Positions 8,261-35,055 of a stretch of DNA of 59,553 nucleotides are shown here, in pieces. A program made the position numbers and the translations under genes. Source of the DNA: Clostridia bacterium (GTDB lineage Bacteria; Bacillota; Clostridia; Oscillospirales; CAG-272); contig JAFSCG010000106.1 in assembly GCA_017436885.1 (NCBI GenBank), positions 1-59,553 of the forward strand, in the 5' to 3' direction. How positions within the stretch are numbered: the first letter of the stretch is position 1; the number at the start of each line of letters is the position of its first letter. Under the pieces are notes generated by a model. It was not told where the DNA came from. It ran no database searches and saw only the letters and a program-made list of their open reading frames with translations.

Positions 8261-8263
8261 ACG

Positions 8264-8304
8264 AAAACAGCATCCCGCGGAGATCTCTCCAAGGGGTGCT
8301 GTTT
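8264..8304. terminator. bidirectional hairpin between convergent genes
   Basis: AAAACAGCATCCC (8264-8276) pairs with GGGGTGCTGTTT (8293-8304). Confidence 0.55.
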
Positions 8305-8309
8305 GACTG

Positions 8310-8981: not shown

Positions 8982-8990
8982 GTTCTTTCC

Positions 8991-9482
8991 TTATTTAACT
9001 ATAAATCTCAGCTCGCCCGTGAAATCCAGCACCGTGTCGCCGAGGTCGGTTACGGAGATAAGGTCGGTAATTTCAAGGGTCATGGGGCGGGCGGTAACGG
9101 GGAAATCCTCGGCGTTTATCACAAGCTCGTAGGTAATGGCGTTTGCCTTGGTATCGGTTTCGTATATTGCGTAATTATAACCGCCATCAAGCTTTGCAAA
9201 GGGAAAGTGGGGGTATACGCCGCCAAGCTTTACCTCGTCTGCGCCGATGCCGCTTGGCAGATATACGGTAAAAAATATACGCACGGTCTCCGCCGTCTTT
9301 TCTGCGGAAACCAGCTTGACGTCAAGATCCTCGGAATTACCCTGCGCCACTCTCGTATCCTTTTCTATTTCTATATGTGCCACGTTTGGGTCAAAGTACA
9401 GGCCCAAAGCTACTGCGGTTGCGGTGAATACCACGGCAATGCAAATCAGCGACACGAGGGCGTAGCGTATAAGTTTTTTCAT
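8991..9482 (-). CDS. membrane-anchored extracytoplasmic protein, function unknown
   Basis: 163 aa with AAAGGAGGGG upstream, an N-terminal TM anchor (YALVSLICIAVVFTATAVALGLY) and a beta-rich remainder. Confidence 0.6.
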   Translation of the reverse strand: MKKLIRYALVSLICIAVVFTATAVALGLYFDPNVAHIEIEKDTRVAQGNSEDLDVKLVSAEKTAETVRIFFTVYLPSGIGADEVKLGGVYPHFPFAKLDGGYNYAIYETDTKANAITYELVINAEDFPVTARPMTLEITDLISVTDLGDTVLDFTGELRFIVK

Positions 9483-9631
9483 CGTTTCCCCTCCTTTTTA
9501 TTATTTCCTTATCTGCATTATACAGTAAAAATATGAATAAATCAAGTTTTTCGGAAAAGGAGAAAGCCGTTGAAAAGAGAAGCTTGATGTGTTATTATGG
9601 GATAAAGAATATCAAAACGGAGAATACCGAT

Positions 9632-13802: not shown

Positions 13803-13975
13803 ACGCGACGCGCAGTTATGATCGCCTACGGCGAACTATGAGTTATAAGTTATGAGATGCTTTTCATCGTTTGAATAAAGAATCGCAAGGCGATCATATC
13901 ATAACGTTTCGCAAAGCGGAACTCATAACGTTTGCATAGCAAACTTATAACTCATAACTTTTATATTTTTGATTC
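13803..13975. repeat. nested inverted-repeat (cruciform-capable) intergenic element
   Basis: A perfect 15-bp inverted repeat TATGAGTTATAAGTT (13837-13851) / AACTTATAACTCATA (13942-13956) encloses an inner repeat ATGATCGCC...GGCGATCAT. Confidence 0.75.
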
Positions 13976-13996
13976 GTATTTATTTCTCAAAAGCCC

Positions 13997-14025
13997 TTGC
14001 AATTTAGAGAAAAGTATGGTATCAT
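13997..14025 (+). promoter_or_regulatory. extended -10 promoter of rpsT (TTGCAA-17 nt-TGgTATCAT)
   Basis: TTGCAA at 13997-14002, TG at 14017-14018 and TATCAT at 14020-14025. An approximately 85-nt leader follows. Confidence 0.55.
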
Positions 14026-14113
14026 ACTATTCTGTGATGACATTTCGGGGAGAACCGCACCCTCTCAGGCGGATCTCCAAATTAAATAATTTCGTGAAGA
14101 GGAGGTGTTTTCG

Positions 14114-14374
14114 GTGCCTAACATTAAATCCGCAAAGAAGCGCGTAAAGGTTAACGAAACCAAGGCGCTCCAGAACAAGATGTTTAAGTCCAGACTTCGC
14201 ACTGCTATGAAGAAGTACGCAGCTGCAGTTGAGTCCGGCGACAAGGCAGCAGCTGAGGTTGCATACAAGGATGCAGTTAAGCTCATCGACCGTGCTGTTT
14301 GCCGCGGTGCAGTTCACAAGAACCTTGCAGCCCGCAAGAAGAGCCAGTTTACCAAGGCTCTCAACAACCTTTAA
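14114..14374 (+). CDS. rpsT: 30S ribosomal protein S20
   Basis: GTG start at 14114, 8 nt after AGGAGG. (M)PNIKSAKKRVKVNETKALQNKMFKSRLRT is typical of S20. Confidence 0.92.
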   Translation: MPNIKSAKKRVKVNETKALQNKMFKSRLRTAMKKYAAAVESGDKAAAEVAYKDAVKLIDRAVCRGAVHKNLAARKKSQFTKALNNL

Positions 14375-14388
14375 TTGTGTTATGTATA

Positions 14389-14424
14389 AAAAACCTGCTG
14401 TTTAACCCGACAGCAGGTTTTTTA
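14389..14424 (+). terminator. intrinsic terminator of rpsT
   Basis: AAAACCTGCTG-loop-CAGCAGGTTTT followed by a T-run. Confidence 0.85.
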
Positions 14425-14426
14425 CA

Positions 14427-14730
14427 TTGAAAATCGCCGTATACTTCAGAGAATTGCCCCAAAGCACCTCGACGTACGTAAGTACGCCTTCGGTTGGCTT
14501 GAGGGAGCAATTTCTTCGTCTACGACGATTTTTAGCTTGGTTAATATCGAAAATCGTCGTATACTTCAGAGAAAAATCCAAAAGCAGCTCGACGTATGAA
14601 GATACGCCTTCTCTTGGCTTTATGGATTTTTTCTTCGTCTACGACGATTTTTAGCGTTTCGATTTCGAAATTGCGTATATTTCAAACAATCTTCAATCGT
14701 AGGGGAGGGGTCTCCCCTCCCGCAAATATC
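14427..14730. repeat. two 120-bp tandem long-hairpin units plus a partial third (family B), ending in the GGGAGGGGTCTCCCCTCCCGCAA hairpin
   Basis: The units at 14429-14533 and 14549-14652 both start AAAATCG(C/T)CGTATACTTCAGAGAA and end TTCTTCGTCTACGACGATTTTT, with a CGACGTA..TACGCC apex. The same design occurs at 37117-37221. Confidence 0.8.
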
Positions 14731-14767
14731 CAACCTCAACGATAGAACGGGAGGCGAAACGCCTCCC

Positions 14768-15928
14768 CTACTTCTCTCCCGCGAGGGAGAGAACGCCCTC
14801 TTTAAGGGCGGCGCAGAAGCGCGTTATGTCCTCGGGCAAGTAATCGGCAGATATGCTGACGCGCACGGTCTTACCTGCGGCGTTTTCGTCAAGACCGAAG
14901 GCAATAAGAGAGGAGGAGGCGTGCTTTGCGTGGCTGGAGCAGGCAGAGCCTGCGGAAACGAATATACCCTTGGCAGAAAGAAAATGCACCAGAGTTTCGC
15001 TTCTGACGCGGCTGTTTGTAATGCTTATTATGTGAGGTGCGCGCACGGGCGGCAGGTTGAATGAGATAAGCTCGCAGTCTCCAAGCTCATTGGTTATTTG
15101 CTCCGTAAGGGCGCGGCATTTGCGGGCGCTTTCCCCAAGCTTTGCCGAGTTTTCCTTAACTGCGGCACCGAATGCCGCAATGCCTACGGTATTTTCCGTA
15201 CCGCTTCGCAGTCCGCTTTCCTGACCGCCGCCGTAGATAACGGGGGAGAGGCGGCGCATTTTTTCCGTTTCGGGCGTGAACCAGAGGGCACCAACGCCCT
15301 TCATGCCGCCCACTTTATGCGCACTTACCGTCACCGCGTCACATCCGAGGCGATGCACGTTCATTGGTATCTTCAAAAAAGCCTGTACCGCATCGCAGTG
15401 CAAAAACGCCTGCGGTGCTTTTTTTCTTGCCGTTTTGAAGGCTGTGGCAACGTCGTACACCGCACCCGTTTCGTTATTAACGTGCATAAGGCTGACTATG
15501 GCGGTGCTTTCGTCAAGAGCGTCCTCCAGCTGTGCCATATCAAGGGTGCCGCCCTTGGTGCGGATGCGCACGGCGCTCCAGCCCATCTCCTCCAGCACCC
15601 GTACTTGATTTTCAATTGCGGGATGCTCGCTGTCGGTTATGATTATTTTTGGCGTGCCGCGAAACTTTTTTGCCCTTGCGGCTCCGAGAATGGCAAGATT
15701 GTTTGCCTCACTGCCCGAGCCGCAGAAAATCAGCCTGCCTTTTGTTTTGTCGCTTCCGAGGGCGGCAAGCACGTTATTCCTTGCCGCGGTCAGCTCCTTT
15801 TCCGCCGCAAGACCGGCGCTGTGCAGGGAAGAAGGGTTTCCGTAAATATCCATAACGCGCACCGCCGCCTCCTTCGCCATAGGCGAAAGGGGCGTGGTGG
15901 CGCTGTTGTCAAAGTAAAGCTCCTTCAT
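14768..15928 (-). CDS. cysteine desulfurase (NifS/IscS-like class V aminotransferase)
   Basis: YFDNSATTP, the PLP-lysine context [14 protein letters not shown] and the catalytic-cysteine context SAGSACSS. Confidence 0.85.
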
Positions 15929-16443
15929 TACATAAAGCGGAATTCCGCAAGGACGAGAGCAACCTTGTCGATATGCTCTTCGAACTTTTCGGGCGTTGCG
16001 GTGAAGGTGAAAACGTATACGGTGCTGTTCTTCACGCAGAATACCTGCATTACCTTATAGTCGCGGGTGCCTGCCTTTGCGGTGTAGGTGTACTGCTTTG
16101 CCTCAACGCCGTCAAGGGCGGTGGCCTTTACCTCGGGCTCGGACATCTCCTTAAAGAGCGCGGAGTATTCCGCCTTTACGCTCTCCCAATATTCGTCCAC
16201 GGTCATGGTCTTTTCAAGGGCGTAGGAGGTCATGGACATGTTGGACTTGTCCGTATCGCTGTAATAAGCGGAGGCAACTCCCGTGGACATATCCACGGTC
16301 CAGTTCTGGGGCACGAAGAAATAGTAGTCGCTTACCTCGTTGCTTGCCAGCTTCATTCCCGTGGGGGCGTTTACCTTGTTGCCGCAAGCGGCAAGGGAGA
16401 GAACTGCCACAAGGCAGAGAATGATTGCGGTGATCTTTTTCAT
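15928..16443 (-). CDS. lipoprotein of unknown function
   Basis: MKKITAIILCLVAVLSLAACGN gives a signal peptide plus lipobox. The stop overlaps the start of the desulfurase gene by 1 nt. Confidence 0.65.
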   Translation of the reverse strand: MKKITAIILCLVAVLSLAACGNKVNAPTGMKLASNEVSDYYFFVPQNWTVDMSTGVASAYYSDTDKSNMSMTSYALEKTMTVDEYWESVKAEYSALFKEMSEPEVKATALDGVEAKQYTYTAKAGTRDYKVMQVFCVKNSTVYVFTFTATPEKFEEHIDKVALVLAEFRFM

Positions 16444-16459
16444 TGTTTTTTCCTCTTTT

Positions 16460-17707
16460 TTATTTATTGGTGGCTTTTATAACTTCCTCTGCGGCGCCGA
16501 TAATGCCGCATTTGCCGCTTTCGTAGGTAAGTCCGCCCTGCAGGAACACGCGGAAGGGCGGGCGCAGGGGTCCGTCAGCGGAAAGCTCGATGGACGAGCC
16601 GCCCACGAAAGCACCTGCCGCCATAATTACCTGATCGTCGTAGCCGGGCATATCCCATGGCTCGGGAGTAAGGAAGGAGTCGATGGGGGAATTTGCCTGA
16701 ATGCCGCGGCAGAAGGCACAAAGAGCGTCTGCACTTTCAAGCTCGATTATCTGTATGATGTCCTGCCTCATCTCGCCCGCCTCGGGGGAAACGCGGTAGC
16801 CGAGTCGGGAGAAAACGTACGCGGCAAGCTGTGCGGTCTTTATCGCCTCCGCAACAACGTGGGGCGCAAAGAAAAGTCCGCGGAAGATGTTCTTGTTCTG
16901 ACCGAGGGTAGCACCCACCTCGCCGCCGATGCCGGGAACGGTAAGTCGGTAGGAGACCAGCTCCACGGCCTTGGCACTTCCCGCCATGTAGCCGCCCGCG
17001 TCTGCCATTCCGCCGCCGGGGTTCTTTATCAGGGAGCCGACCAGCAGGTCTGCACGGTAGGGCTCTATCTCCTCAACAAATTCGCCGTAGCAGTTGTCCA
17101 CCATTACGAAGGCGGAGGAGCGTGCATGCACAAAGTCCGCAAGCTCGTTTATCTCCGCGGCTGTAAGGGTGCGTCTGCCCGCATATCCGCGACTGCGCTG
17201 AACGTAAACCACCTTAACGGTGCCGTCCTCCAGCGCCTTTTCGATGGCGGGATAGTCGAATTCCTCGCGTCCGTTTTTGATGGCAAAATCTATCTGCTTG
17301 TAATTGATGCCGAAGTCGGGAAGGGAGCCCTCGCCGTCCTTCTTTTCCGTAACGCCCTTTAAGGTGTCGTAAAGCTCGCCCGTAACGGAAAGAAGAGTGT
17401 CGCCCGGTCGCAAAAGACCGAAAAGACCGATTGTCAGGGCATGGGTGCCGTTTGCAATGCTGTGGCGTACTATTGCCGCTTCGGTGCCGAATACCTCTGC
17501 GTACACCTCGTCGATAAGCTCGCGTCCGCGGTCGTTGTAGCCGTAGCCGTCGCTTGCGGCAAAATGGGTGGCGCTGATGCGCGCGTTTTTAAAGGCGGTA
17601 AGCACCTTCCTTGTGTTTATCTCGGAAATGCGCGCAATGCGGGCAAAGCAGGGGGCAAGCTCCTCCTCGCCTTGGGCGCAAAGGGCTTCAAGCTGTTCTG
17701 CGTTCAT
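16460..17707 (-). CDS. ynbB: methionine gamma-lyase-family PLP protein (YnbB / aluminium-resistance-protein family)
   Basis: ORF trimmed to the ATG at 17707 (MNAEQLEAL), which forms an ATGA overlap with the upstream gene stop. DGYGYNDRGRE, ANGTHAL and SLIKNPGGG are family-typical. Confidence 0.8.
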   Translation of the reverse strand: MNAEQLEALCAQGEEELAPCFARIARISEINTRKVLTAFKNARISATHFAASDGYGYNDRGRELIDEVYAEVFGTEAAIVRHSIANGTHALTIGLFGLLRPGDTLLSVTGELYDTLKGVTEKKDGEGSLPDFGINYKQIDFAIKNGREEFDYPAIEKALEDGTVKVVYVQRSRGYAGRRTLTAAEINELADFVHARSSAFVMVDNCYGEFVEEIEPYRADLLVGSLIKNPGGGMADAGGYMAGSAKAVELVSYRLTVPGIGGEVGATLGQNKNIFRGLFFAPHVVAEAIKTAQLAAYVFSRLGYRVSPEAGEMRQDIIQIIELESADALCAFCRGIQANSPIDSFLTPEPWDMPGYDDQVIMAAGAFVGGSSIELSADGPLRPPFRVFLQGGLTYESGKCGIIGAAEEVIKATNK

Positions 17708-22509: not shown

Positions 22510-23940
22510 ATGGTCAGTAATGAAATAGCAGAGCAGAGAAGTGATATTATAGCAAAGCTTGTTGCGGCAAGGCTTGAAAAAGGCATTACCCAAGCGGAGC
22601 TCGCCAATATGATAGGAACACAGCGCTCCAATATTTGCAGGCTTGAAAGCGGTGCGCAAAATCCCACTGTGGATATGCTTTTGAAAATATCTGCGGCACT
22701 GGGAAAAAGGTTGGAGCTTGAGTTGAGCGATAAGGAGGAAACGGTGGTGCAGACCTACGTTTTAAAGCTGTATGATACGGAGCTTTTAAGGTTTTCCCTT
22801 TCGGAGCGTGGCTTGGAGGGCTTGAAGGCCGAGCTGATATCTGTGAACAAAGATCTGCAGCCTCTTTTCCCATACGGGCTTGAACTCACGGGAGAAGGGG
22901 TGATCTCCTGGCTGAAAAGCCGTGTCGTTCCCAAAAACAGACGCTTTGTGGCGGAGATACTTGCGTCCTTTGGGTTGAATGCAAATGATACGAAGGGAAT
23001 TATAGACGTTTGCATGGGTCTTTCTCTTAACGATAGCTATTGGGTGGTAGAGGAGGATTTTAAAGGCAGCTTTGCAGATTACAATCTTTACGAAAACAGG
23101 TTTTCGGAGATACTGTCGCTTGTTGCTTATACGGGGGTTGAGCAAAGCCACGGCGGGTTTACCACCTCTCCGGAGCTTACCACGGGAGGAGCGCTGCCAA
23201 AGGCTTGGCGTTTTATAGATGGTGATGGCATATATCTTTATAAGGGCGGCAACGATATTCTCACACACGGGGGAAACGAGCCGTACAGCGAATATTATGC
23301 TTCACAGATCGCTTCGCAAATGGGACTTAATGCAGTTTGCTACGATCTTGAGAATTGGAAGGGTATTCTTGCCTCAAAATGCAAGCTTTTTTGCAGTATC
23401 GACGTTTCATACGTGCCTGTGTGGAGAGTGATACCCGACGTTACCATAAAGAAAGCTTTAGATCTTTATGACAGCCTTGGTGCGGATTTCGGCGAGCAGC
23501 TTCGCAGTATGCTTGCCTTTGATGCTCTTATATATAACGAGGATAGGCATTTCGGCAATTTCGGTCTGTTGCGTGATAACAAAACAGGAAGGTTTATTGC
23601 GCCTGCGCCCATGTTTGACCACGGTCATTCGCTTTTCAGTCAGGCGGCACCCGAAAAATTCGAGGATCTTGAAGCTTATTCAAAAACGTTAACAACTCCG
23701 TACGAAGGGCTGACCTTTGACAAAATAGCTGTGGAGGTCATTGGAAAATCACAGATCTCACAGCTTCGTAAAATGGCAAATTTCACTTTCAAGCGTCATG
23801 CCTCGCTTAATTTGGACGAAGGAAGATTGCAAAAGATAGAGGCGTTTATAAGGCGCAGGGCGGTTCAGCTTCTTGCCTTGGCAAAAAGCCATACACACGA
23901 AAAGAGATCGCTCCGTAAAGATCAAGACGCGGATGTGTGA
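22510..23940 (+). CDS. XRE-type HTH domain fused to a HipA-family Ser/Thr kinase (YjjJ/HipH-like)
   Basis: The N-terminus ITQAELANMIGTQRSNICRLESGAQNPTVDMLLKISAALG is HTH_3-like. HipA-like blocks are TTGGALPKAW (cf. SLAGAQxK), NEPYSEYYASQIA, FDALIYNEDRHFGNFGLL (catalytic loop) and APAPMFDHGHSL. Confidence 0.8.
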   Translation: MVSNEIAEQRSDIIAKLVAARLEKGITQAELANMIGTQRSNICRLESGAQNPTVDMLLKISAALGKRLELELSDKEETVVQTYVLKLYDTELLRFSLSERGLEGLKAELISVNKDLQPLFPYGLELTGEGVISWLKSRVVPKNRRFVAEILASFGLNANDTKGIIDVCMGLSLNDSYWVVEEDFKGSFADYNLYENRFSEILSLVAYTGVEQSHGGFTTSPELTTGGALPKAWRFIDGDGIYLYKGGNDILTHGGNEPYSEYYASQIASQMGLNAVCYDLENWKGILASKCKLFCSIDVSYVPVWRVIPDVTIKKALDLYDSLGADFGEQLRSMLAFDALIYNEDRHFGNFGLLRDNKTGRFIAPAPMFDHGHSLFSQAAPEKFEDLEAYSKTLTTPYEGLTFDKIAVEVIGKSQISQLRKMANFTFKRHASLNLDEGRLQKIEAFIRRRAVQLLALAKSHTHEKRSLRKDQDADV

Positions 23941-24012
23941 GATTCGTGGATATCACTTCCGCCATCAACTGTGCAGATTGCGGATGCTTTTGAACCGCAA
24001 AGAAGGATGTTT

Positions 24013-24513
24013 ATGAAAATTAAATTGTGCAGATACGGTAATTACTGCAATAAAAAATTGCTGTTGGGAACGGCTATTTATTGCGCGATAATATTGCTTC
24101 TTTTCCAGGATATCATTGCGGCTATAACGGGCATCTGTATTTTCCTTGCTTTTGCTCCGCTTGCCTATCCAAAGTCCTTTATCATGGACTACGAAATGAT
24201 AAAATACACCCGCATCCATCATTTGAACAACAGGTTCGGTCGCGGTAGCATTATAGTCAAGGTCAAATACGAGGTGTCGCATATATCGAAGATAGAATTG
24301 TTGCAAAATCCAATGGAAAAGCTTTTGGGGCTGGGACATTTAAGGTTTGTTGGTTATACATACCACGAGGCGAAAAAACACATGGACAGAATCGAGCCCG
24401 TGGTCGCTCATTGCCTTTACGGTGTGGTCATGAAAAAGCACAGGTCGGTAATTGAGGATTTTATAAAGAGCGTAAATGCTGGCGGAGAGAAGAATTATAG
24501 CAGCGAATATTGA
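24013..24513 (+). CDS. membrane protein with bacterial PH (bPH_2/YdbT-like) domain
   Basis: ORF trimmed to the ATG at 24013, after AGAAGGA. It has two N-terminal TM helices, then a beta-rich segment with LQNPMEKLLGLGHLRF, similar to the bPH_2 signature. The gene is AT-rich. Confidence 0.55.
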   Translation: MKIKLCRYGNYCNKKLLLGTAIYCAIILLLFQDIIAAITGICIFLAFAPLAYPKSFIMDYEMIKYTRIHHLNNRFGRGSIIVKVKYEVSHISKIELLQNPMEKLLGLGHLRFVGYTYHEAKKHMDRIEPVVAHCLYGVVMKKHRSVIEDFIKSVNAGGEKNYSSEY

Positions 24514-24546: not shown

Positions 24547-24756
24547 AAAGGGTCGTTAAAGCTAACGGCCCTTTTATTTTGGAGCGTGTATGGCGTTTTT
24601 CGATATGGTTTTATAGGCGTGGGCTTGGCGGCGGACGCCTTTGCCGCCGCGGTGGTGCGCGGACTGCGCATCGGCAGGCTGAGGGCCGCATGCCTTGCCT
24701 CCACGGCACTCACCTTTGCATTCTTTCAGGGGGCTATGACCCTTGCGGCAAAGTAA
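24547..24756 (+). pseudogene. truncated, frameshifted duplicate of the mntP 5' end (direct-repeat copy 1)
   Basis: 24581-24748 matches 31492-31660 except for one missing G (between 24612 and 24613, versus G31524) and G24692 versus A31604. From the ATG at 24590 the frame reads MAFFDMVL-stop. Homology ends at 24748. Confidence 0.85.
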
Positions 24757-24758
24757 TG

Positions 24759-25595
24759 CTATCGGAAATCCCTTGGGGAGATTCCGGTCCGCTTTTTAAA
24801 TTCGCGGGAAAAATGGCAGGGCTCTGTGTAGCCGCAAAGGTTGGCGACCTCGGAAACGCTCATGTGTCCCGATACCAGCAGATGCTTGGCATATTCAATT
24901 CTCTTTCGGATCACGTATTCCTTCGGGGATATGCCGAATTTGTTGTTGAATATCTTTCGCAAATACACCTCGCTCACGCCGCAGAGCTTTGCCAGATGCT
25001 CTATCGTTACGTCGCAGCTCATAAAATCACGTTCGATCGCTTCCAGTGCCGGGGCGATCATTTTTTGTTGGCCGCTTGGCATGTATTTCTTTTCGGTCTC
25101 CTTTTGCAGGTGATAGATAGCGTCGTAAGCTGCACGCATGGTCGCGGCAAAGCACGCAGGGGAACGGGACGACCATTCGACGCACGCTGTTTTGAAGCTT
25201 TTTTTAAGCTCGTCCGCATCTCGCAACGAAACGACGAAGGGTTCGCAGTCTATATCGGCGTCAAAGTTTATGGCGTAGCAATGACCGCCTTTTATTACTT
25301 TGATTTGGTAAGTGGAGTTTTTTGGGAGATAAAAAAGGCATTCGCCCTCCGTGCGCATAACACGCCCGTCGGAAAAGCAATAATCCTTTATTCCGTCTCC
25401 TGCCTCCATTACAAGCCCGTGAAAGGGACGGTCCTTGTGGAACATTTTGCCACAGTTCGGCGGGACGCAAAGGGCAAAATGTATTTTTGATATCAGCGTG
25501 TTTTCCCAGTCTTTTTTCATAGCGGATAAATCGGAACAATAGATCCGTTGCTCCTTTCGAAAAACTCTTGTTTTTTGAATAATCTGCTTAATCAC
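24759..25595 (-). CDS. AraC-family transcriptional regulator (cupin-like sensor domain plus 2 HTH_AraC motifs)
   Basis: The C-terminus IEHLAKLCGVSEVYLRKIFNNKFGISPKEYVIRKRIEYAKHLL...EVANLCGYTEPCHFSREFKKRTGISPRDF is the canonical AraC HTH pair. Confidence 0.88.
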   Translation of the reverse strand: MIKQIIQKTRVFRKEQRIYCSDLSAMKKDWENTLISKIHFALCVPPNCGKMFHKDRPFHGLVMEAGDGIKDYCFSDGRVMRTEGECLFYLPKNSTYQIKVIKGGHCYAINFDADIDCEPFVVSLRDADELKKSFKTACVEWSSRSPACFAATMRAAYDAIYHLQKETEKKYMPSGQQKMIAPALEAIERDFMSCDVTIEHLAKLCGVSEVYLRKIFNNKFGISPKEYVIRKRIEYAKHLLVSGHMSVSEVANLCGYTEPCHFSREFKKRTGISPRDFR

Positions 25596-25706
25596 GGCAA
25601 TTTTACGGGAATATTATAGCATTTTATTTCGAATACATCAAGTACTTTCGGTAATATCATTTTCAAAGATCATTTGCTGTGTATAATGAAAACAGAGGTG
25701 ATCGTT

Positions 25707-27920
25707 ATGGAATACATCAAGGCTGCGGATTACGAATACGTAATAAATAAATATCACGATACGAAAAAGCCGTTTAACAGCTTTTTCAGATTCATCCGAA
25801 GAGACGATATCTTCTCTTCGGAAACGGGTATGGACGGTGATGAGATAAAAGCGCAACTATTGCGGCTCGATGCGGAGCGTGAGGGTGTTTCGCATTCGGT
25901 GAGAAAGGCCATGGGATTTGCCTTCGTTTTGGAAAACACGAGGATCTCCTGCGATAGCCGCGATAGGTTTCCCGCAATCAACGCCATAGATCGCCCCTTG
26001 GAGCAAGTCATGATCGCGCGTTGGCGGCGCGAGGTATTTGAAGAGCTGGTTCCCGACGCGGAAGCGAAAAGAAAGGCCTTGGGAAGCTCGGGCGCGGCGA
26101 ATATTTCTCCGGATTTCGACCACAGCGTTCCCGTGTGGGACAGGATACTTTCCCTCGGGTTCGCGGGGCTGCTTCGGGAGAGCGAGGAGGCGCGAGCGCG
26201 TTGTGAATGCACGCCCGAGCAGGAGGCCTTCTTTGATGGCGTGAAGATAACGTACGAGGCGATAGTAAGCTTTATCGGCAGGCTTGCCGCTTTGGCAGAG
26301 GCAACCGAGGGCTCTCAGCGTATGGCAGAGGCGTTAAAGCATATAGCTTACAATGCGCCGTCAACCTTTTACGAGGCCTTGCTTGTCAACTACGTTTATT
26401 TCATGCTCAGCGAACATATTGAGGGTCTGCAGGTACGTTCACTTTCCAATTTTGACAGGCATTTCAGGCATTTTTATGAGCGGGATATTGCGAACGGCAT
26501 CACCGAGGAAGAGATACGGACCGATCTTGCGTATTTCCTCCTTCAATTCACCGCTATAGGGAACTATTGGAACCAACCCGTATATCTCGGTGGTGAAAGA
26601 GCAGACGGTACAACGGAGATAAATCCTCTGTCGTATATTTTCCTCGACGTGTATGACAAAATGGGGATATACAACCCCAAAATACAGATAAAGGTGGCGG
26701 ACAGCACGCCAAAAAGCTTTCTTTGCCGTGCTCTTGACATGATACGTCGGGGAAACAGCAGTATCGTGTTCGTTTCCGATGCCACCATTCGTAAAGCGCT
26801 GATAAAAAATGCGGGAGCAACGGAGGAAGAAGCAAGGCTTTGCCACGTTAAGGGCTGTTACGAATACGGTATAGAGGGCGTATATTCGGGCGGCATGAAT
26901 TATCTTAACCTCCTCAAGCCCTTGGAATATGTCTTGCACGAGGGGCGCGACGGTATAACGGGTGCATTTGTCGGTGTGAAATGCCCTGCCGCAAAGGATT
27001 ACGATTCCTTTGAACAGCTTTACGACGAATACAAAAAACAGCTTTTGTACGTTATTGACACTACTATCGAAACCGTAAACGGTTTTGAGGAGTATCTCAG
27101 CTATATCAACCCGCAGTCGATGCTGTCCGCAACGTATCCCGACTGCCTGAAAAACGGGCGCGATGCCCTTGTAAACGGGGAAAGTAATCTTAGCGTGGGT
27201 TTTGTTGCATCTCTTGCAGATTCCCTTGCGATGATAAAGAAGTACGTTTTTGATCTGAAGCTTATCTCGCTTCCCGAGCTGGTCCGTATGCTCGATGCGG
27301 ATTTTGAGGGTAACGATGCGTTCCGACGCAGACTTCTTGCCGATCGGGATAAATACGGCAACAACAAGCCGCTCCCCGATGGAATAGCGGTTGATATCGT
27401 AGATTTTGTTGCCAAGCACGTAACGGGAAGGCCGAATGCAAGTGCACGCGGCCGCAAATGGAGCTGCGGATTCCACGTTGCGCGTATGTCCTACTCCCAA
27501 GGAACAAAAACTGCCGCTACACCGGACGGGCGACGTTTTGGAGAGGAGCTGTCCAAAAACTGCTCTGCGGTCATGGGGCAGAATCGCGAGGGTGCAACGG
27601 CTGCCATACTGTCCGCAACCAGGATAGACGCCTCCTCCTTCGCGGGTGATGCTTGTCTTGATATCGGATTGCTTCCCTCGACCGTAAGCGGCGAGGACGG
27701 CTTGCAGGCGATGTACGGCCTGCTGCGTACCTTCTGCCGCCGCGGAGGGCACGCTCTTCAGATCAACGTATTTAATTCCGATATGCTCCGCGATGCCCAA
27801 GCGCATCCCGATAAGTATCGCGATCTGCAGATCAGGGTATGCGGCTGGAACGTGCTTTGGAACAACATAAACAAAAAGGAACAGGACGGCTTTATCCGTC
27901 AGGCGGAGGCACTTGCTTGA
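25707..27920 (+). CDS. glycyl radical enzyme, compact (737 aa), PFL2/dehydratase-like, substrate unknown
   Basis: ATG at 25707 after AGAGGTGA. The C-terminal glycyl motif is QIRVCGWNV (Gly codon 27843-27845). The Cys loop is HVKGCYEYG (Cys codon 26856-26858, Glu two residues later). HALQINVFNSDMLRDAQAHPDKYRDL is typical of the GRE C-terminal domain. Confidence 0.85.
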   Translation: MEYIKAADYEYVINKYHDTKKPFNSFFRFIRRDDIFSSETGMDGDEIKAQLLRLDAEREGVSHSVRKAMGFAFVLENTRISCDSRDRFPAINAIDRPLEQVMIARWRREVFEELVPDAEAKRKALGSSGAANISPDFDHSVPVWDRILSLGFAGLLRESEEARARCECTPEQEAFFDGVKITYEAIVSFIGRLAALAEATEGSQRMAEALKHIAYNAPSTFYEALLVNYVYFMLSEHIEGLQVRSLSNFDRHFRHFYERDIANGITEEEIRTDLAYFLLQFTAIGNYWNQPVYLGGERADGTTEINPLSYIFLDVYDKMGIYNPKIQIKVADSTPKSFLCRALDMIRRGNSSIVFVSDATIRKALIKNAGATEEEARLCHVKGCYEYGIEGVYSGGMNYLNLLKPLEYVLHEGRDGITGAFVGVKCPAAKDYDSFEQLYDEYKKQLLYVIDTTIETVNGFEEYLSYINPQSMLSATYPDCLKNGRDALVNGESNLSVGFVASLADSLAMIKKYVFDLKLISLPELVRMLDADFEGNDAFRRRLLADRDKYGNNKPLPDGIAVDIVDFVAKHVTGRPNASARGRKWSCGFHVARMSYSQGTKTAATPDGRRFGEELSKNCSAVMGQNREGATAAILSATRIDASSFAGDACLDIGLLPSTVSGEDGLQAMYGLLRTFCRRGGHALQINVFNSDMLRDAQAHPDKYRDLQIRVCGWNVLWNNINKKEQDGFIRQAEALA

Positions 27921-27921
27921 T

Positions 27922-28860
27922 ATGCGTGGGGAAAAGGTGTTTTCAAATCGAATTTCAAGCCTTTTGTTGGCTCTGGCCGTCTGTGCTCTGTGGGGGTCTC
28001 TTTACCCATTCGTGAAGCTTGGATATGACGCCTTTAGCATAGACGGCGGAGACGTTCCGTCAATCATACTGTTTGCTGGCGTGCGCTTCGCTGTGTGCGG
28101 TGTTGCCATGGCGGTGTTGTTTTCGGCGGTGAAGGGAAGGCTCCTTGCACCAAAAAGGGAAGACGCGGCACCTGTTTTTACTGTTGCGCTGTTCTCCGTG
28201 ATCCTTCACTATCTTCTTACTTATATCGCGCTGGCGGTGGGCGAGGGCTCCAAAAGCGCAATAATCAAGCAGATCGGATTTCTCTTTTTGAGCTGTATGT
28301 CCTTTCTGTTTATAAAAAACGAGCGGTTTTCTTATAAAAAGCTTTTCTGCGGATGCTTGGGTTTTTCCGGCATAGTCGTTACAAGCATGGATGGCTCCGC
28401 GTTTTCCTTTGCCCTTGGGGACCTATTGCTGGTGCTTTCGTCCTTTTGTGCGGTCATAGGAACAGTAGCGACAAAAAAAGCGGTCAAGCGTACGGAGCCC
28501 TTGGTCCTCGTGGCTTATTCACAGCTTTTCGGAGGCGTTTTGCTTTTGCTCGCGGGGCTTGCCTTTGGCGGGAGGATTGCGCACGTCGACCTTGGCTCCG
28601 CTGTTGTTTTTGCATATATTTGCGTGGCTTCCATCTGTGCGTACGCTCTTTGGAACGTGCTGATAAAATACAATTCCGTTTCCAAGCTTTCAATGATAAA
28701 GTTTACGGAGCCGTTGTTTGCGGTCCTGTTTTCGGGGCTGTTGCTCCGCGAAAACATTTTGAAGTGGAATTATGCGGCGGCTATGATAATTATTTTTACG
28801 GTGATACTTTTGGATAACGGCTTTATACGCAAGCGTCGGGGAAAAGGTGGCTTTAAATGA
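27922..28860 (+). CDS. DMT-superfamily (EamA-type) transporter
   Basis: About 10 TM helices in two EamA-like halves. The ATG lies 2 nt after the GRE stop, and the gene's stop overlaps the activase start (ATGA). Confidence 0.8.
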   Translation: MRGEKVFSNRISSLLLALAVCALWGSLYPFVKLGYDAFSIDGGDVPSIILFAGVRFAVCGVAMAVLFSAVKGRLLAPKREDAAPVFTVALFSVILHYLLTYIALAVGEGSKSAIIKQIGFLFLSCMSFLFIKNERFSYKKLFCGCLGFSGIVVTSMDGSAFSFALGDLLLVLSSFCAVIGTVATKKAVKRTEPLVLVAYSQLFGGVLLLLAGLAFGGRIAHVDLGSAVVFAYICVASICAYALWNVLIKYNSVSKLSMIKFTEPLFAVLFSGLLLRENILKWNYAAAMIIIFTVILLDNGFIRKRRGKGGFK

Positions 28861-29747
28861 AAGCAACGATCTTTGAGATAAAGCGATTTGCCGTTCATGA
28901 CGGCGACGGTATTCGTACTACCGTGTTCTTCAAGGGCTGTTCGCTGAAATGCGTATGGTGCCATAATCCCGAGGGACTGGGCGCTTCTCCGCAGTTAGGC
29001 TACTACGAGCATAAATGCACAGGCTGCGGCGAATGTGCGGCCGTTTGCCCCGCGAATGCTCACCGCACAGAGAGCGGGATCCACGTTTTTGATAGGGAAA
29101 AATGTATCGCCTGCGGCAGGTGCGCCGTTGTATGCACCAATGGAGCGTTAAGCTTTTACGGTAAAGAGGTAACGGTGGAAGAGCTGCTTTCCCTGCTTCT
29201 TGAGGACAGAGAGTTTTACGAGGAGTCCGATGGCGGTGTTACGCTTTCGGGCGGAGAGTGCCTTATGCAGGCGGATTTTTGCGCAGAGCTGCTGAAACGC
29301 CTGAAGGAGCACGGTATCCACACCGCTGTTGATACCTGCGGCTTCGTTTCAAGGGAGACACTGGATCGGGTCATTCCGTTTACCGACGTGTTTTTATACG
29401 ACATAAAGGCCTATGACGAGGAAGTGCATAAAAAATGTACCGGTGTTTCCAATCGCAGGATCCTTGATAATCTTGCGTATCTTGATTCCGTCGGAAAATC
29501 TGTTGAGATACGTATTCCTTACGTTCCCGATCACAATGATGCGGAAATGAGGGACATTGCCCGTTTTGTTTCGACCCTTAAGAACGTTACGAAAATAAGG
29601 GTCCTTCCGTACCATGCATACGCCGGATCGAAATATCGTGCTTTGGATATGGAAAACACCCTTCCCGAAAGGCTTCCTTCTTCAACGGAGTTGGACGAGG
29701 CTAAGGCTATTATCCGCAAGCTCACGAGCATTCGAGTTCAGGACTGA
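28857..29747 (+). CDS. glycyl-radical enzyme activating protein (radical SAM with ferredoxin-like insert)
   Basis: CSLKCVWCHNPE provides the CX3CX2C motif. CTGCGECAAVCP and CIACGRCAVVC provide two auxiliary 4Fe-4S motifs. GGVTLSGGE is also present. Confidence 0.9.
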   Translation: MKATIFEIKRFAVHDGDGIRTTVFFKGCSLKCVWCHNPEGLGASPQLGYYEHKCTGCGECAAVCPANAHRTESGIHVFDREKCIACGRCAVVCTNGALSFYGKEVTVEELLSLLLEDREFYEESDGGVTLSGGECLMQADFCAELLKRLKEHGIHTAVDTCGFVSRETLDRVIPFTDVFLYDIKAYDEEVHKKCTGVSNRRILDNLAYLDSVGKSVEIRIPYVPDHNDAEMRDIARFVSTLKNVTKIRVLPYHAYAGSKYRALDMENTLPERLPSSTELDEAKAIIRKLTSIRVQD

Positions 29748-29816
29748 GGTATACTTACGGTTTTTTTGTGCTTACACAAGCTCAATAAAATAAAAAACAA
29801 AAAACAGGAGGAAAAA

Positions 29817-31343
29817 ATGAAAAAATTCACATTGTTCACGGCAATACTTTTGTGTTTGGCAATGCTTTTACCCGCCTGCGGCACACCGGCAACTCCCCCA
29901 TCGGAAACGGATGGCAGTTCTGCTGACGTTACCACCGAAGCCCCCGTTGTAACGGAATCCCCATATGATGAAAACGGTTTTTTGAAGGACGATCTTCCGG
30001 ACGAGCTTGATTTCAACGACCTTACGGTCAAGATTTTCATTGCGGATTATAACAAGGCGTACGCCGAGGATATGTATAGCGAGGGCTATAATACCGAGCG
30101 CCTTAACGATGCGATCTACGCTATGATCGTAAACGTAGAGGATCGCCTTAACGTTGATCTTGAATATACCATAGAGTCCTACGTTTGGGCCGATTACGAT
30201 AAGTTCCAAGGCAGCGTTAAAACACGCATCATGGCAAACGACGGATCTATGGATCTTATATTCAATAATCATAATGCCGCATACGATATGCTTGAGTACG
30301 AATACTACGTTGACCTTTCCGAAACCAAGTACATAAACGAGGACATGCCCTGGTATAACCAGAGCATTAAGGACAGTCTGCTTACCGATTACGTTCACTT
30401 CCTTGCAGGTGACTTTGCCCTTGCGAACGTAAAAAACACTTACGCAGTTTATTTTAACGCTGATATGTACAAGTCGCTGGGATATACCGAAAATATTTAC
30501 GACGTGGTTGACAGCGGCAAATGGACCATCGACAAGATGGAGGAGCTGATAAAGACTTGCTACTCCGATCTTAACGGAAACGATAAGGCAGATCCCGCAG
30601 ACCGCTTCGGTCTTACCTTCGGAGATACCAATAAGTATCTCGGATTCCTTCCCGCCTTTGACGTAAAGATATTTACAAGGACCAACGACGGCTACGATTT
30701 TACCTATGGAAACGAGCACGCACTTGACGTGGCAAACAGGCTTATTGCCCTTGTGAACACCAATGAGAATGTGCTTAAGGGTCAGGCAAACGGCAAGGAA
30801 GCCGACTTCCCGGATTGGATGATATCCTCCGGAGGCGGTAACAACGCAAGCAGAGTGTTCATTGAGGGACGCTCGCTGTTCTCCTGCGGACTTGTTGCAG
30901 ATGCACCCGCCATTATCAACGCCATAAATTTCGAGTACGGCCTTCTTCCTTATCCCAAGTGGAACGAGGAGCAGGAAAATTACCAAACGACCCTCCAGCG
31001 CAGCTGTAACGCTATGATCCCCGTTTGCTCCACCATAGAGGACGAGGCATCTGCCGTTCTTGAAGCATTGGCAAGCGAATCCCACAGAAATCTGATGCCC
31101 GAGTACTGCGAGGTCTCTCTCAAGACCCGTTATTCTCAGGATAGCGACGTAAGCCGAATGTTCGACCTTATCGCTCACAGCACGGTATACGATCCGGGTG
31201 AAATATACAACAACGGTACGCCCGGCGGATACATACGTTACGCCATTAACGTAAGGCTGGATTGGATGAGCCACATAGCCGCAAACCGAGATGCTCTTGT
31301 TAACAAGATGCAGGAAGTAGTTGATTTCTACAAGAATAAGTGA
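29817..31343 (+). CDS. large extracellular solute-binding lipoprotein (ABC SBP family 1-like), with no adjacent permease genes
   Basis: ATG at 29817 after AGGAGG. MKKFTLFTAILLCLAMLLPACG gives a signal peptide plus lipobox, followed by a TPATPPSETDGSSADVTTEAPVVTESP linker and about 460 aa resembling an SBP. Confidence 0.65.
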   Translation: MKKFTLFTAILLCLAMLLPACGTPATPPSETDGSSADVTTEAPVVTESPYDENGFLKDDLPDELDFNDLTVKIFIADYNKAYAEDMYSEGYNTERLNDAIYAMIVNVEDRLNVDLEYTIESYVWADYDKFQGSVKTRIMANDGSMDLIFNNHNAAYDMLEYEYYVDLSETKYINEDMPWYNQSIKDSLLTDYVHFLAGDFALANVKNTYAVYFNADMYKSLGYTENIYDVVDSGKWTIDKMEELIKTCYSDLNGNDKADPADRFGLTFGDTNKYLGFLPAFDVKIFTRTNDGYDFTYGNEHALDVANRLIALVNTNENVLKGQANGKEADFPDWMISSGGGNNASRVFIEGRSLFSCGLVADAPAIINAINFEYGLLPYPKWNEEQENYQTTLQRSCNAMIPVCSTIEDEASAVLEALASESHRNLMPEYCEVSLKTRYSQDSDVSRMFDLIAHSTVYDPGEIYNNGTPGGYIRYAINVRLDWMSHIAANRDALVNKMQEVVDFYKNK

Positions 31344-31449: not shown

Positions 31450-31660
31450 AAAAAGGTCGTTGAAGCTTACTTCTGCGGCCTTTTGCTTTTTGGAGCGTGT
31501 ATGGCGTTTTTCGATATGGTTTTGATAGGCGTGGGCTTGGCGGCGGACGCCTTTGCCGCCGCGGTGGTGCGCGGACTGCGCATCGGCAGGCTGAGGGCCG
31601 CATACCTTGCCTCCACGGCACTCACCTTTGCATTCTTTCAGGGGGCTATGACCCTTGCGG
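31450..31660. repeat. direct-repeat copy 2 (mntP upstream hairpin plus the first 160 nt of intact mntP)
   Basis: See 24547-24756. The coding part is near-identical and the upstream ~40 nt are more diverged. Confidence 0.85.
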
Positions 31661-32025
31661 GATATTATGCGGGGGAGCTTTTAGCCTCGGGACTTGAAAA
31701 ATGGTCGGGCATACTTGGGGCAATACTGCTGTTTTTTCTCGGCGGAAGGATGCTGTTTGCCGCCGAGGAGGAAGAGCCTTCTCTGCATCTTATATCTATG
31801 GGATTTGCCACAAGCGTGGATGCCTCCGTAGTTGGTATGGCGTTCTCCCTTCGCCCGTCGGTAAGTGTTTTTCACCTTTGTGCCGTTATCGCCGCAGTAA
31901 CTCTCGTCTTATCTCTTTTGGGCTTTGCTTTGGGTTGCGCCTTTGGCGGCCGCTTCCGCAAAACTGCAAGAATAGGCGGTGCATTGGTGCTTATTGCTAT
32001 GGGTGCACGGTTTTTGATCGGGTAA
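31501..32025 (+). CDS. mntP: manganese efflux pump MntP
   Basis: ORF trimmed to the ATG at 31501 (MAFFDMVLIGVGLAADAFAAAVVRG), after GGAG. It has the two DUF204 half-repeats with (D/S)xDAF/SVDA motifs and FLGGRML, as in MntP. Confidence 0.8.
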   Translation: MAFFDMVLIGVGLAADAFAAAVVRGLRIGRLRAAYLASTALTFAFFQGAMTLAGYYAGELLASGLEKWSGILGAILLFFLGGRMLFAAEEEEPSLHLISMGFATSVDASVVGMAFSLRPSVSVFHLCAVIAAVTLVLSLLGFALGCAFGGRFRKTARIGGALVLIAMGARFLIG

Positions 32026-33519: not shown

Positions 33520-35055
33520 ATGGCAAACAAAAAAGAACTGAACAATAAAATACCCGAGGGTCTTTCCAAGGAAAGGCTTGAAAGACGTCTCGACCTTGTG
33601 CGCGTAATATGCCTCGGCACGGTAATGGCCGTTGTAGGCATCGGTCTTCTGGTGCTGGAGCGTCCCACCGAGAGCCTTGCGGAAAAGCGCAAGCTGGCGG
33701 AAAAGCCCGCCTTCTCCCTTTCCGCGGTTCTGGACGGAAGCTATATGCGTCAAATGACAAAGTATTATACGGACACCGTGCCCTACCGCGACCTTCTCGT
33801 GGATCTGGGCGCCTCCGTTCCCGAATATCTCGGCGTGCGCGTCGACGGCGTTAAGATACACGGCGATATCCCTGTGGTGCCTCCCGTAGACGATAAGCCT
33901 CCCGTTATTACCGAGCCTCCCGTAACTACCGACGCACCCGTAACCACCGAGCCCGTAACCGAGCCTCCCGTTACCACGGAGCCTGTTACCACCGATACTC
34001 CCGTAACGGGCGAGCCCGTTATCACCGACCCCGTTACCGACCCCGTAACCGAGCCTGTAACCGAACCTCCAGTAACCGAACCTCCAGTAACCGAACCTCC
34101 CGTAACCGAACCCCCCGTTACGGAGCCTCCCGTTACCACCGCTCCTCCCGTAACCGAGGAGCTTCCCGACGTTAACGACATTCTCCGCGAAAACGGTATT
34201 ATAGTTCTCAATAAGCGCGCCATTATGCTTTATTACGGCTCATACGATGCTACCGCAAGGTACGCCGCATCCGTAAACGAGTATAAAAAGGCGTTGGGCG
34301 ACAAGGTAAACGTGTGGTCTATGATCACTCCCACGGCAGTTGCCTTCTACCTGCCCGATAAATACAGCGCGTACACAAACGACCAGAAGGGTCATATCGA
34401 ATACGCCGCCACCCTCCTTCAGGGAGCAACGGAGATCAACGCCTACGCCGCGCTCCTGCCCCACGTTAAGGAGAACATCTACACCCGCACCGACCATCAT
34501 TGGAGTACCCTTGGTGCTTATTATGCCACCGAGGCCTTCGCAAAGAAGGCGGGCGTGCCCTTTGCTCCTCTTTCCACTTACAAGAAGATCGAGCGCGAGG
34601 GATACGTTGGTACTATGTACGCCTTCACGGGCGATCAGGTGCTGAAGAACAATCCCGAGACCTTCGTTTACTACAAGCCCCAAAACGATTACAGCGTTGA
34701 GTATTTCGACAGAAATATGCAAAACGGCTTTGCAAGCTCGCTGTTCTTTGATTGGGTGGACACACCAAACTCCTATCTTGTTTTCATCGGAAGCGATGAT
34801 CGCGTGACCCACATAACTACCGACTGTAAAAACGGCAGAAGGCTGTTCGTTATCAAGGACAGCTACGGCAACGCCCTCGTGCCCTTCCTTACGGGCTCCT
34901 TCGAGGAGATCTGGGTGGTGGACTTCCGCTACTTCGAGCTTAACGCCGTTCAGTTTATGAAGGACCACGAGATAACCGACTTTATGGTATCTATGTGCGC
35001 ATTCTTCTCCTGCGGCACGGGCGTTGGATATCTGGAATCTATGAGAACGAAATAA
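33520..35055 (+). CDS. DHHW-family protein (extracytoplasmic AlgX/AlgJ/DltD-analogous acyltransferase) with PVTEP-repeat linker
   Basis: An N-terminal TM helix (VICLGTVMAVVGIGLLVL), about 95 aa of (P)VT(E/D)P repeats, and the RTDHHWSTLGAYYA motif. Confidence 0.85.
   Translation: MANKKELNNKIPEGLSKERLERRLDLVRVICLGTVMAVVGIGLLVLERPTESLAEKRKLAEKPAFSLSAVLDGSYMRQMTKYYTDTVPYRDLLVDLGASVPEYLGVRVDGVKIHGDIPVVPPVDDKPPVITEPPVTTDAPVTTEPVTEPPVTTEPVTTDTPVTGEPVITDPVTDPVTEPVTEPPVTEPPVTEPPVTEPPVTEPPVTTAPPVTEELPDVNDILRENGIIVLNKRAIMLYYGSYDATARYAASVNEYKKALGDKVNVWSMITPTAVAFYLPDKYSAYTNDQKGHIEYAATLLQGATEINAYAALLPHVKENIYTRTDHHWSTLGAYYATEAFAKKAGVPFAPLSTYKKIEREGYVGTMYAFTGDQVLKNNPETFVYYKPQNDYSVEYFDRNMQNGFASSLFFDWVDTPNSYLVFIGSDDRVTHITTDCKNGRRLFVIKDSYGNALVPFLTGSFEEIWVVDFRYFELNAVQFMKDHEITDFMVSMCAFFSCGTGVGYLESMRTK

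Follow-up and report, generated by a model that had tools for sequence, protein, structure and literature searches.

The stretch of DNA analysed here (the window) is a 59,553-bp contig from an uncultured 'Clostridia bacterium' metagenome-assembled genome (MAG), and the subject of the analysis is a five-gene cassette at positions 24759-31343 that is built around a short glycyl radical enzyme (GRE). Besides the GRE, the cassette encodes its activase, an EamA/DMT-superfamily permease, a divergent AraC/XylS-family regulator and a lipoprotein of the solute-binding protein (SBP) type. The results support the assignment of this locus, as an inducible GRE system, to a large, uncharacterised, carbohydrate-linked clade that lies outside the known GRE families. 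On balance, the five genes are read as one inducible, horizontally inserted catabolic module whose GRE would cleave C-O bonds by radical chemistry of the eliminase or isomerase type and would act on a carbohydrate-derived substrate. Taken by itself, the carbohydrate origin of the substrate is likely; any specific compound named as that substrate would very probably be wrong.

The GRE shows the PFL-like barrel and the C-terminal glycyl radical domain of its superfamily, together with the R-V-x-G-aromatic motif and an aligned cysteine. MAFFT alignment with Escherichia coli PflB, PflD and YbiW places Cys384 (codon 26856-26858, in KGCYEYG) on PflB Cys419 and YbiW Cys441, Glu386 (codon 26862-26864) on YbiW Glu443, and Gly713 (codon 27843-27845, in IRVCGWNV) on PflB Gly734 and YbiW Gly786. 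The cysteine and the glycine thus coincide with catalytic residues of solved GREs, and the G-C-x-E loop of the dehydratase/lyase type, which an earlier sequence-only reading of this stretch had reported in place of a Cys-Cys loop, is confirmed as GCYE. In a 2026 review of GREs, catalysis and substrate binding in YbiW are assigned to Cys441 and Glu443, and C-x-E is given as the hallmark of GRE eliminases and isomerases. Cys384 and Gly713 are invariant in 43 orthologs and in 122 sequences of the clade described below. In the orthologs, which are 63-74% identical to the window GRE, the catalytic residues are joined by more than 150 other invariant columns, which indicates purifying selection. An AlphaFold2 (AF2) model built on the 43 orthologs (pLDDT 87, pTM 0.89) matches HypD, propanediol dehydratase, glycerol dehydratase, HplG, CutC and YbiW with a Foldseek probability of 1.0, TM-scores of 0.80-0.83 and 20-25% identity, and a PDB search returns HypD as the best solved relative (7e-70, 25% identity, 239 bits). 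Judged from their sequences, the GRE and its activase are very likely a working pair that uses C-x-E chemistry.

The shortness of the enzyme is genuine. Its ATG at 25707 is preceded by a GAGGTG ribosome-binding site (RBS) at 25695-25700, and more than 120 homologs (63-99% identity, 734-749 aa) align with it end to end from residue 1, which supports both the start and the length. The longer reading frame that opens at TTG 25674 contains the -10 box TATAAT (25682-25687), and the promoter-like TTTTCA-16-TATAAT that overlaps this TTG argues against the longer frame. Relative to enzymes of about 790 aa, the alignment with E. coli YbiW shows the loss distributed over several deletions inside the protein. 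No upstream start that restores a standard length was found, and homolog lengths, promoter and internal deletions together rule out N-terminal truncation as the cause of the shortness. The sequence-only reading had singled out the length and the Cys-Gly-Trp around the radical glycine as unusual; both features are real, but they are hallmarks of a whole clade and not peculiarities of this gene.

Membership of any characterised GRE family was ruled out by hidden Markov model (HMM) cut-offs, by a neighbour-joining (NJ) tree and by the mapping of HypD residues. Across all NCBIfam equivalog models the GRE reaches 8-27% of the cut-off, scoring 282 bits against 1100 for HypD (NF043068), 211 against 1000 for HpsG, 195 against 1000 for HpfG, 186 against 1150 for HPAD, 185 against 1050 for CutC (TIGR04394), 163 against 1100 for IAD and 79 against 994 for PFL (TIGR01255). 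The model of the GD/PFL2 subfamily (TIGR01774) gives 294 bits against a cut-off of 678. By these scores the GRE does not fall inside a clade with a known substrate, an outcome that the sequence-only reading had named as one that would cost the locus its novelty. In a HMMER alignment, the HypD substrate residues taken from Backman et al. (2020) are replaced at D278 (Q242), D339 (N289) and T645 (A592), S334 falls in a gap, and only Y450 is kept, as Y399. The segment aligned to HypD Asp339/Phe340 is an invariant GNYWNQP in the orthologs, rich in aromatic and amide residues, and H139, present in 121 of 122 short-clade sequences, is the probable equivalent of HypD His160. The 2026 review covers all characterised GREs to mid-2026, none of which corresponds to the window GRE, and targeted literature searches found no relevant work on the short GCYE/RVCGWN clade. 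Genes of known GRE neighbourhoods had been reported as absent, and this agrees with the present search, which found no microcompartment, aldehyde-dehydrogenase, TRAP or sulfite-reductase genes nearby and no HPAD-type small-subunit open reading frame (ORF) among those of the cassette.

Searched exhaustively with HMMER, 1.84 billion cluster representatives yielded 4990 relatives of the GRE. The best 150 of these are mostly 680-770 aa long and score 250-820 bits, above the 239 bits of HypD, and more than 100 clusters at 50% identity among the best matches score above any characterised GRE. In the NJ tree the short GREs separate from PflB, YbiW, PflD and representatives of about 790 aa. Clade residues were counted in 122 short-clade sequences and compared with an aligned outgroup of eleven: PflB, PflD, YbiW, L001_667 and seven longer representatives. 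The tyrosine of the G-C-Y-E loop is found in 114 of the 122, Cys712 of R-V-C-G-W-N in 109, Trp714 in 119, Asn715 in 114, Arg244 in 119, Lys617 in 98 and Asn618 in 117, and the outgroup has these hallmarks rarely or not at all. Positions 241-242, 284-290, 387, 397-399 and 589-596 of the GRE differ between subfamilies, a pattern to be expected of specificity determinants. Two further types of 719 aa and 725/727 aa are 36-40% identical to the window GRE, and subfamilies can adjoin, as in locus L001 with its three GREs in a row. The clade occurs in ruminant, termite and human gut metagenomes. At NCBI the window GRE is MBQ7010972.1 and, like many orthologs, is annotated 'hypothetical protein' because it scores below the curated GRE model cut-offs; clade members are consequently largely invisible in annotation-based surveys.

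Some relatives depart from this pattern. In P0256, P0264, P0269, P0273, P0278 and P0311 the glutamate of C-x-E is replaced (GCWD, GCYN, GCFN, GCNN) and RV(C/S/T)GW is kept, which hints at chemistry without the usual catalytic base. Beside the ortholog cassette of L001, positions 12437-17523 hold a second AraC gene, two more GREs and another activase. One of these extra GREs is of the 719-aa RVCGWN type; the other has 667 aa, much shorter than PFL, and combines a Cys-Cys loop like that of PFL (SACCS) with the glycyl motif R-M-Y-G-F.

When one genome per GTDB species was scanned, 58 loci were obtained, all in gut MAGs of goats, sheep, deer and further animals that are assigned to Clostridia, Oscillospiraceae or 'Eubacteriales'; relatives of 37-39% identity occur in Victivallaceae. 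Cassette components were counted by tblastn in the 31 loci that have adequate flanks and a GRE at least 54% identical to that of the window, and counts of neighbour families are approximate, as ORF calling picked some antisense ORFs in GC-rich loci. A divergent AraC gene is present in 27 of the 31 loci, a downstream activase in 24, a DMT gene in 15 (one a 95-aa remnant), an SMP-30/gluconolactonase-type gene in 10, a SASA carbohydrate esterase in seven, a second GRE in seven, an SGNH-like esterase in three and the lipoprotein in three. The earlier assignment of the DMT permease and the AraC regulator to the unit is borne out by these counts, by the shared DMT slot and by a conserved operator-like motif. 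The slot between GRE and activase is variably filled in orthologous cassettes by a lactonase, a SASA esterase (8e-58) or an SGNH-like esterase, and the SMP-30-type gene (PF08450, 3e-46) has regucalcin and the xylonolactonase XylC as its best PDB matches.

Distant clade members are fused to AXE1, SASA, 3-keto-disaccharide-hydrolase or glycoside hydrolase (GH) domains of families GH2 and GH78. These fusions (P0260, P0282, P0286, P0293, P0296, P0317 and P0348) are single polypeptides of 940-1560 aa in which an N-terminal esterase or GH domain is joined to a short-clade GRE; an 850-aa N-terminal part of P0317 has no Pfam match. Neighbours of clade members include GH5, GH20, GH28, GH30, GH65, arabinofuranosidases, an arabinose-isomerase (AraA)-like protein, GFO/IDH/MocA oxidoreductases and AP_endonuc_2 proteins. 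The lactonase and esterases in the operons, the fusions to carbohydrate-active enzymes (CAZymes), the GH neighbours and the carbohydrate-type SBP all support a carbohydrate substrate. The uptake-plus-radical-cleavage system of the sequence-only reading is supported, and its 'small polar metabolite' is refined to a compound that is most likely carbohydrate-derived.

All five ORFs lie where they had first been placed and are intact, with RBSs and coupling. The coordinates of the cassette and of the repeat that brackets it are collected in Table 1.

Table 1. Features of the GRE cassette and its flanking repeat, with positions in the window.
Feature	Coordinates	Strand	Basis
Left direct-repeat copy	24577..24755	+	Frameshifted mntP 5' fragment, codons 2-62; tblastn with MntP 24571-24747
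AraC/XylS-family regulator	24759..25595	-	Pfam HTH_18 8.5e-23, HTH_AraC 9.1e-16
GRE promoter region	25627..25687	+	Promoter scan and ortholog motif comparison
GRE, 737 aa	25707..27920	+	Pfam PFL-like PF02901 4.5e-89, Gly_radical PF01228 1.3e-20
EamA/DMT-superfamily permease, 312 aa	27922..28860	+	Pfam EamA PF00892 2.5e-32 in two stretches
GRE activase, radical S-adenosylmethionine (SAM) protein with two-cluster ferredoxin-like insert, 296 aa	28857..29747	+	TIGR02494
Lipoprotein, 508 aa, divergent MalE-like (cluster-B, carbohydrate-type) SBP	29817..31343	+	AF2/Foldseek, homologs' Pfam
Right direct-repeat copy	31488..31667	+	Inside intact mntP 31483-32025; Mntp Pfam family in window

The lipoprotein, whose ATG follows an AGGAGG RBS and which carries the signal/lipobox LLPAC, has by itself no match in Pfam (even at E=10), NCBIfam or PDB sequences. 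Its AF2 model (pLDDT 90.9) matches TMBP, AbnE, MalE, RafE and GltA with a Foldseek probability of 1.0 and has the two-lobe fold of a type II periplasmic-binding protein, and 11 of 120 listed homologs carry PF01547 or PF13416 (SBP_bac_1/SBP_bac_8). In 9 of 11 loci, homologs of at least 31% identity (31-56%) adjoin a short GRE, in most cases accompanied by an activase gene and a divergently oriented AraC gene, and this linkage spans three GRE subfamilies. Together with the repeat, it upholds the earlier inclusion of the lipoprotein in the unit. The absence of permease partners had also been seen correctly, as MalF/MalG/MalK-type genes were not detected anywhere in the window. Among 147 collected loci (1.8 Mb), MalF/MalG-like permeases are present in L051 and in none of the other 146, which makes the 'orphan' state a property of the whole lipoprotein family. 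Several binding proteins can share one permease, as with HisJ/ArgT and multiple OppA, and on this analogy the most economical reading is that the lipoprotein would be a satellite receptor docking on a permease encoded elsewhere. SBP and DMT genes rarely co-occur, the window being the only case with both, and loci with a GRE-linked SBP (L029-L031, L064-L074) are mostly without a DMT gene; the two are thus probably not partners, and an SBP-dependent secondary transporter made of both was rejected as a general rule.

Lipoprotein paralogs of 25-30% identity are also found without GREs, in tandem arrays of 2-5 copies on termite, rumen and human gut metagenome contigs (L075-L146, e.g. L098, L113, L115 and L131). 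No ABC permease genes are adjacent, and the paralogs appear to be an expanded family of orphan MalE-like lipoproteins.

The AraC gene has two candidate starts, GTG 25595 (278 aa) and ATG 25520 (253 aa); orthologs have 253 aa and align from residue 26. The C-terminal double helix-turn-helix domain matches PF12833 (8.5e-23), and no Pfam model matched the N-terminal sensor domain. Within the GRE promoter, an operator-like motif at 25627-25649 is followed by the -35 box TTTTCA (25660-25665), a 16-nucleotide (nt) spacer and the -10 box. Nearly all orthologous loci have the motif TTGTTTCGATTTCGTCAAGTGTTTTG at this position 5' of the GRE, with a -35 box (TTTACA) and a -10 box after it, and the window copy is a diverged version of this motif. 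Its location beside the -35 box fits an AraC/XylS-type activator site, and the AraC protein would presumably bind this putative operator. Locus L020 has two tandem copies of the operator-like motif (8104-8161) 5' of a 483-aa gene (8246-9697) without a Pfam match, 1.8 kb upstream of the GRE's own motif, and this gene may belong to the regulon as well. RNA elements, riboswitches included, were looked for and rejected as controllers of the operon, as no Rfam family reached its gathering score in the window; no tRNA genes were found anywhere in it.

The translational coupling claimed for the DMT gene is confirmed. Its ATG lies 2 nt after the GRE stop codon TGA (27918-27920), homolog alignments begin at this ATG, and the gene overlaps the activase in an ATGA at 28857-28860. 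The product has two EamA domains and, by a crude hydropathy scan, at least 8-9 strong hydrophobic segments; the orthologs in the same slot are 43-59% identical to it. The activase scores 342 bits with TIGR02494 against a cut-off of 174, and has a CX3CX2C motif at residues 28-35 and CX2CX2CX3C motifs at 54-64 and 83-93, which correspond to two ferredoxin-type clusters. This ferredoxin insert is of the eliminase type.

The functional unit, lipoprotein included, is delimited independently by a 179-nt direct repeat derived from mntP. The two copies differ by one substitution and one 1-nt deletion and bracket exactly the five cassette genes, with the left copy ending 3 nt before the AraC stop codon. 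The GC fraction of the unit is 0.489, versus 0.532 on both sides. These features fit the insertion of a segment of about 6.9 kb that carried a replacement mntP 5' end, and the unit looks horizontally acquired. No integrase or transposase domain was seen in the five genes with Pfam, and no recombinase is encoded in the unit. Immediately to the left, 22510-23940 (GC 0.466) encodes a 476-aa HTH_3 protein whose HipA_C-like match is weak, and 23971-24513 (GC 0.413) is a 180-aa ORF without a Pfam match; both may belong to the same accessory island. To the right, downstream of an MBOAT gene, the ORF at 33520-35055 encodes a long Pro/Thr/Glu/Val-rich repetitive linker PVTEPPVTEPPVTE. It is probably the source of the DHHW-family Pfam match, which the batch scan reported for the window and not per ORF, and its repeat also creates a long spurious antisense ORF.

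In the proposed working of the module, the AraC-type activator would sense the substrate or a derivative and switch on the promoter whose operator abuts the -35 box. The MalE-like lipoprotein would catch the substrate on the cell surface, the DMT permease would import it, or both. In the cytoplasm the activase, whose gene and motifs are present, would use SAM to generate a radical on Gly713. Gly713 would hand the radical to Cys384, and the resulting thiyl radical would abstract hydrogen from a substrate carbon that bears a hydroxyl. This hydroxyl would then be deprotonated by Glu386 of the C-x-E loop, the ketyl radical would expel the oxygen substituent on the adjacent carbon, and the product radical would regain its hydrogen from Cys384. 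The expelled oxygen may leave as water, may belong to the ring, or possibly to an ester or a glycosidic bond. Such chemistry would be that of the GRE 1,2-eliminases and of the YbiW/PflD ring-opening isomerases. Free or deoxy sugars, sugar acids and their lactones, anhydro-sugars and small glycosides would be the candidate substrates, set free in the animal gut from glycans of plants or of the host. The keto or deoxy product would enter general metabolism, because the module has no downstream enzymes. A chemically attractive though unproven version is that the GRE may yield a 2-keto-3-deoxy acid when it dehydrates an aldonic or uronic acid by radical chemistry, which would link lactonase and eliminase; this idea fits the invariant Arg244 and Lys617 and the absence of dedicated downstream enzymes.

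Several observations weigh against this account. The window cassette contains no glycoside hydrolase, esterase, lactonase, kinase or aldolase gene, the CAZyme fusions sit in subfamilies just 33-40% identical to the window GRE, neighbourhoods beyond the cassette are heterogeneous, and all carriers are uncultured MAGs. The fold matches of the lipoprotein include a dinucleotide-binding protein, and the window offers it no MalF/MalG/MalK-like genes. The DMT permease is below the cut-off for all specific equivalogs, and its best matches are carboxylate, amino-acid and amine carriers and exporters (YedA, YddG), so that it could export a product instead of importing the substrate. Arg244 and Lys617, conserved across the clade, could point to an anionic, non-sugar substrate. 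The lack of a carbohydrate-active gene in the cassette itself, the families nearest to the permease and these two residues, which could anchor a carboxylate or sulfonate, would also suit an eliminase that acts on a small polar metabolite other than a carbohydrate (a short diol, amino alcohol, hydroxy-amino acid or organosulfonate), in which case the sugar neighbours would be coincidental in saccharolytic Clostridia. All characterised GRE 1,2-eliminases have substrates of this kind, and the C-x-E loop points the same way, as does the finding that HypD, propanediol dehydratase and glycerol dehydratase rank highest among the structural matches. Nevertheless, this explanation is considered unlikely: the equivalog scores are far below their cut-offs, the HypD substrate residues are replaced, no microcompartment, aldehyde-dehydrogenase, TRAP or sulfite-reductase genes are found nearby, the lactonase and esterase genes of orthologous operons and the GH and esterase fusions are hard to call coincidence, and the SBP fold is of the carbohydrate (MalE-like) class.

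The fusions to GH2, GH78, AXE1, SASA and 3-keto-disaccharide-hydrolase domains could also be read in another way, with the GRE as a radical lyase whose substrate would be an intact glycoside or an O-acylated sugar. After loss of hydrogen from a carbinol of the ring, the oxygen of the glycosidic bond or acyloxy group would be expelled, a radical deglycosylation parallel to 3-keto-glycoside elimination. GFO/IDH/MocA and AP_endonuc_2 genes, which recur nearby, are a usual feature of the oxidative-eliminative glycoside pathway; the partner SBP, some 100 aa larger than MalE, is similar to proteins that bind oligosaccharides; and YbiW and PflD are precedents for GREs in which a C2 radical leads to cleavage of a ring C-O bond. 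The same fusions could equally mean that a hydrolase frees a monosaccharide for the GRE, however, and a DMT permease is an unlikely oligosaccharide carrier; the GRE is shorter than others, with trimmed loops that do not suggest a larger pocket, and such a lyase has no precedent, so that this reading is thought quite improbable. That the cassette is a decaying or non-functional remnant, or its GRE non-catalytic, is hardly credible: the DMT gene has decayed to 95 aa in one lineage (L001), some orthologous loci are without a nearby activase and the NCBI annotation is 'hypothetical', but the five ORFs are intact with RBSs and coupling, the invariant catalytic and other columns reflect purifying selection, and the promoter/operator motif is conserved. 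A module acting on a carbohydrate-derived substrate thus remains the favoured reading.

The difficult anaerobic reactions of GREs strongly affect gut metabolism, among them the formation of trimethylamine, H2S, p-cresol and skatole and the use of hydroxyproline. The locus offers a compact and complete entry into the clade, with regulator, operator, enzyme, activase, transporter and receptor in 6.9 kb. Linkage to esterases, a lactonase, GH fusions and carbohydrate-type SBPs narrows the substrate space, and the co-encoded SBP provides a route to the ligand. A broader and more speculative proposal is that the short GCYE/RVCGWN GREs may form a large unrecognised class of carbohydrate-active enzymes in anaerobic gut bacteria that cleave C-O bonds directly in unphosphorylated sugars, in sugar acids or their lactones and in glycosides by a radical route independent of oxygen, each subfamily being tuned to its own sugar and equipped with its own AraC regulator and satellite MalE-like receptor. 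If this were true, radical sugar-acid dehydration, ring opening and deglycosylation or deacylation would be examples of a new mechanistic category in glycan catabolism, beside hydrolases, lyases, phosphorylases and the oxidative 3-keto route. New chemistry of this kind would change the annotation of anaerobic glycan breakdown. The locus itself is of interest to the fields of radical enzymes and gut glycan metabolism.

Comparison with known systems places each component. The lipoprotein has the two-lobe fold and the lipoprotein signal in common with the MalE-like, cluster-B, CUT1-type proteins TMBP (1EU8), AbnE (6RJY) and RafE (2I58). It differs from them in its identity of 11-14%, its TM-scores of 0.5-0.65, its extra length of about 100 aa and its lack of a Pfam match of its own, and, unlike them, neither it nor most of its homologs have an ABC permease or ATPase gene alongside, its close homologs being linked to GRE and activase genes. 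PflB shares the superfamily and the aligned glycine and cysteine with the window GRE, but has an ACCV Cys-Cys pair where the window GRE has GCYE, and it is the most distant sequence in the NJ tree.

YbiW and PflD (PDB 8ID7, 8ID0, 8YJO), isomerases that open the rings of 1,5-anhydroglucitol-6-phosphate and 1,5-anhydromannitol-6-phosphate, are the only characterised GREs that act on carbohydrates, and they share the C-x-E loop. Their fold matches that of the window GRE (TM-score 0.80-0.82), whereas identity is 21-24% and they form a separate NJ branch. Their substrates are phosphorylated, and phosphotransferase system (PTS) components, a sugar phosphatase and fructose-6-phosphate aldolase are encoded alongside (E. 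coli ybiW-fsaA, frw-pflD); the window cassette, in contrast, has no PTS, kinase or aldolase gene and uses DMT and SBP components. Identity, tree branch and gene context exclude the window GRE from the anhydro-sugar-phosphate isomerases.

The closest likeness is to HypD of Clostridioides difficile (PDB 6VXC/6VXE) and the other GRE 1,2-eliminases, here glycerol dehydratase (1R8W), propanediol dehydratase (5I2G), CutC, IslA/IseG, HpsG/HpfG and HpyG/HpzG. These enzymes and the window GRE have in common the ten-stranded barrel fold (TM-score 0.80-0.83), the C-x-E cysteine loop and the R-V-x-G-aromatic glycine loop at aligned positions, and a neighbouring activase with a ferredoxin-like insert. The window GRE is 20-25% identical to them and about 50-100 residues shorter through distributed deletions, has Tyr in C-x-E where they have Val or Ile and Cys-Gly-Trp-Asn where they have Ala/Ser-Gly-Tyr/Phe, and carries the clade-specific Arg244, Lys617 and Asn618. 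In place of the microcompartment, TRAP or sulfonate genes of eliminase loci, its cassette has the DMT permease, the SBP and the AraC regulator, and its clade has sugar-related partners.

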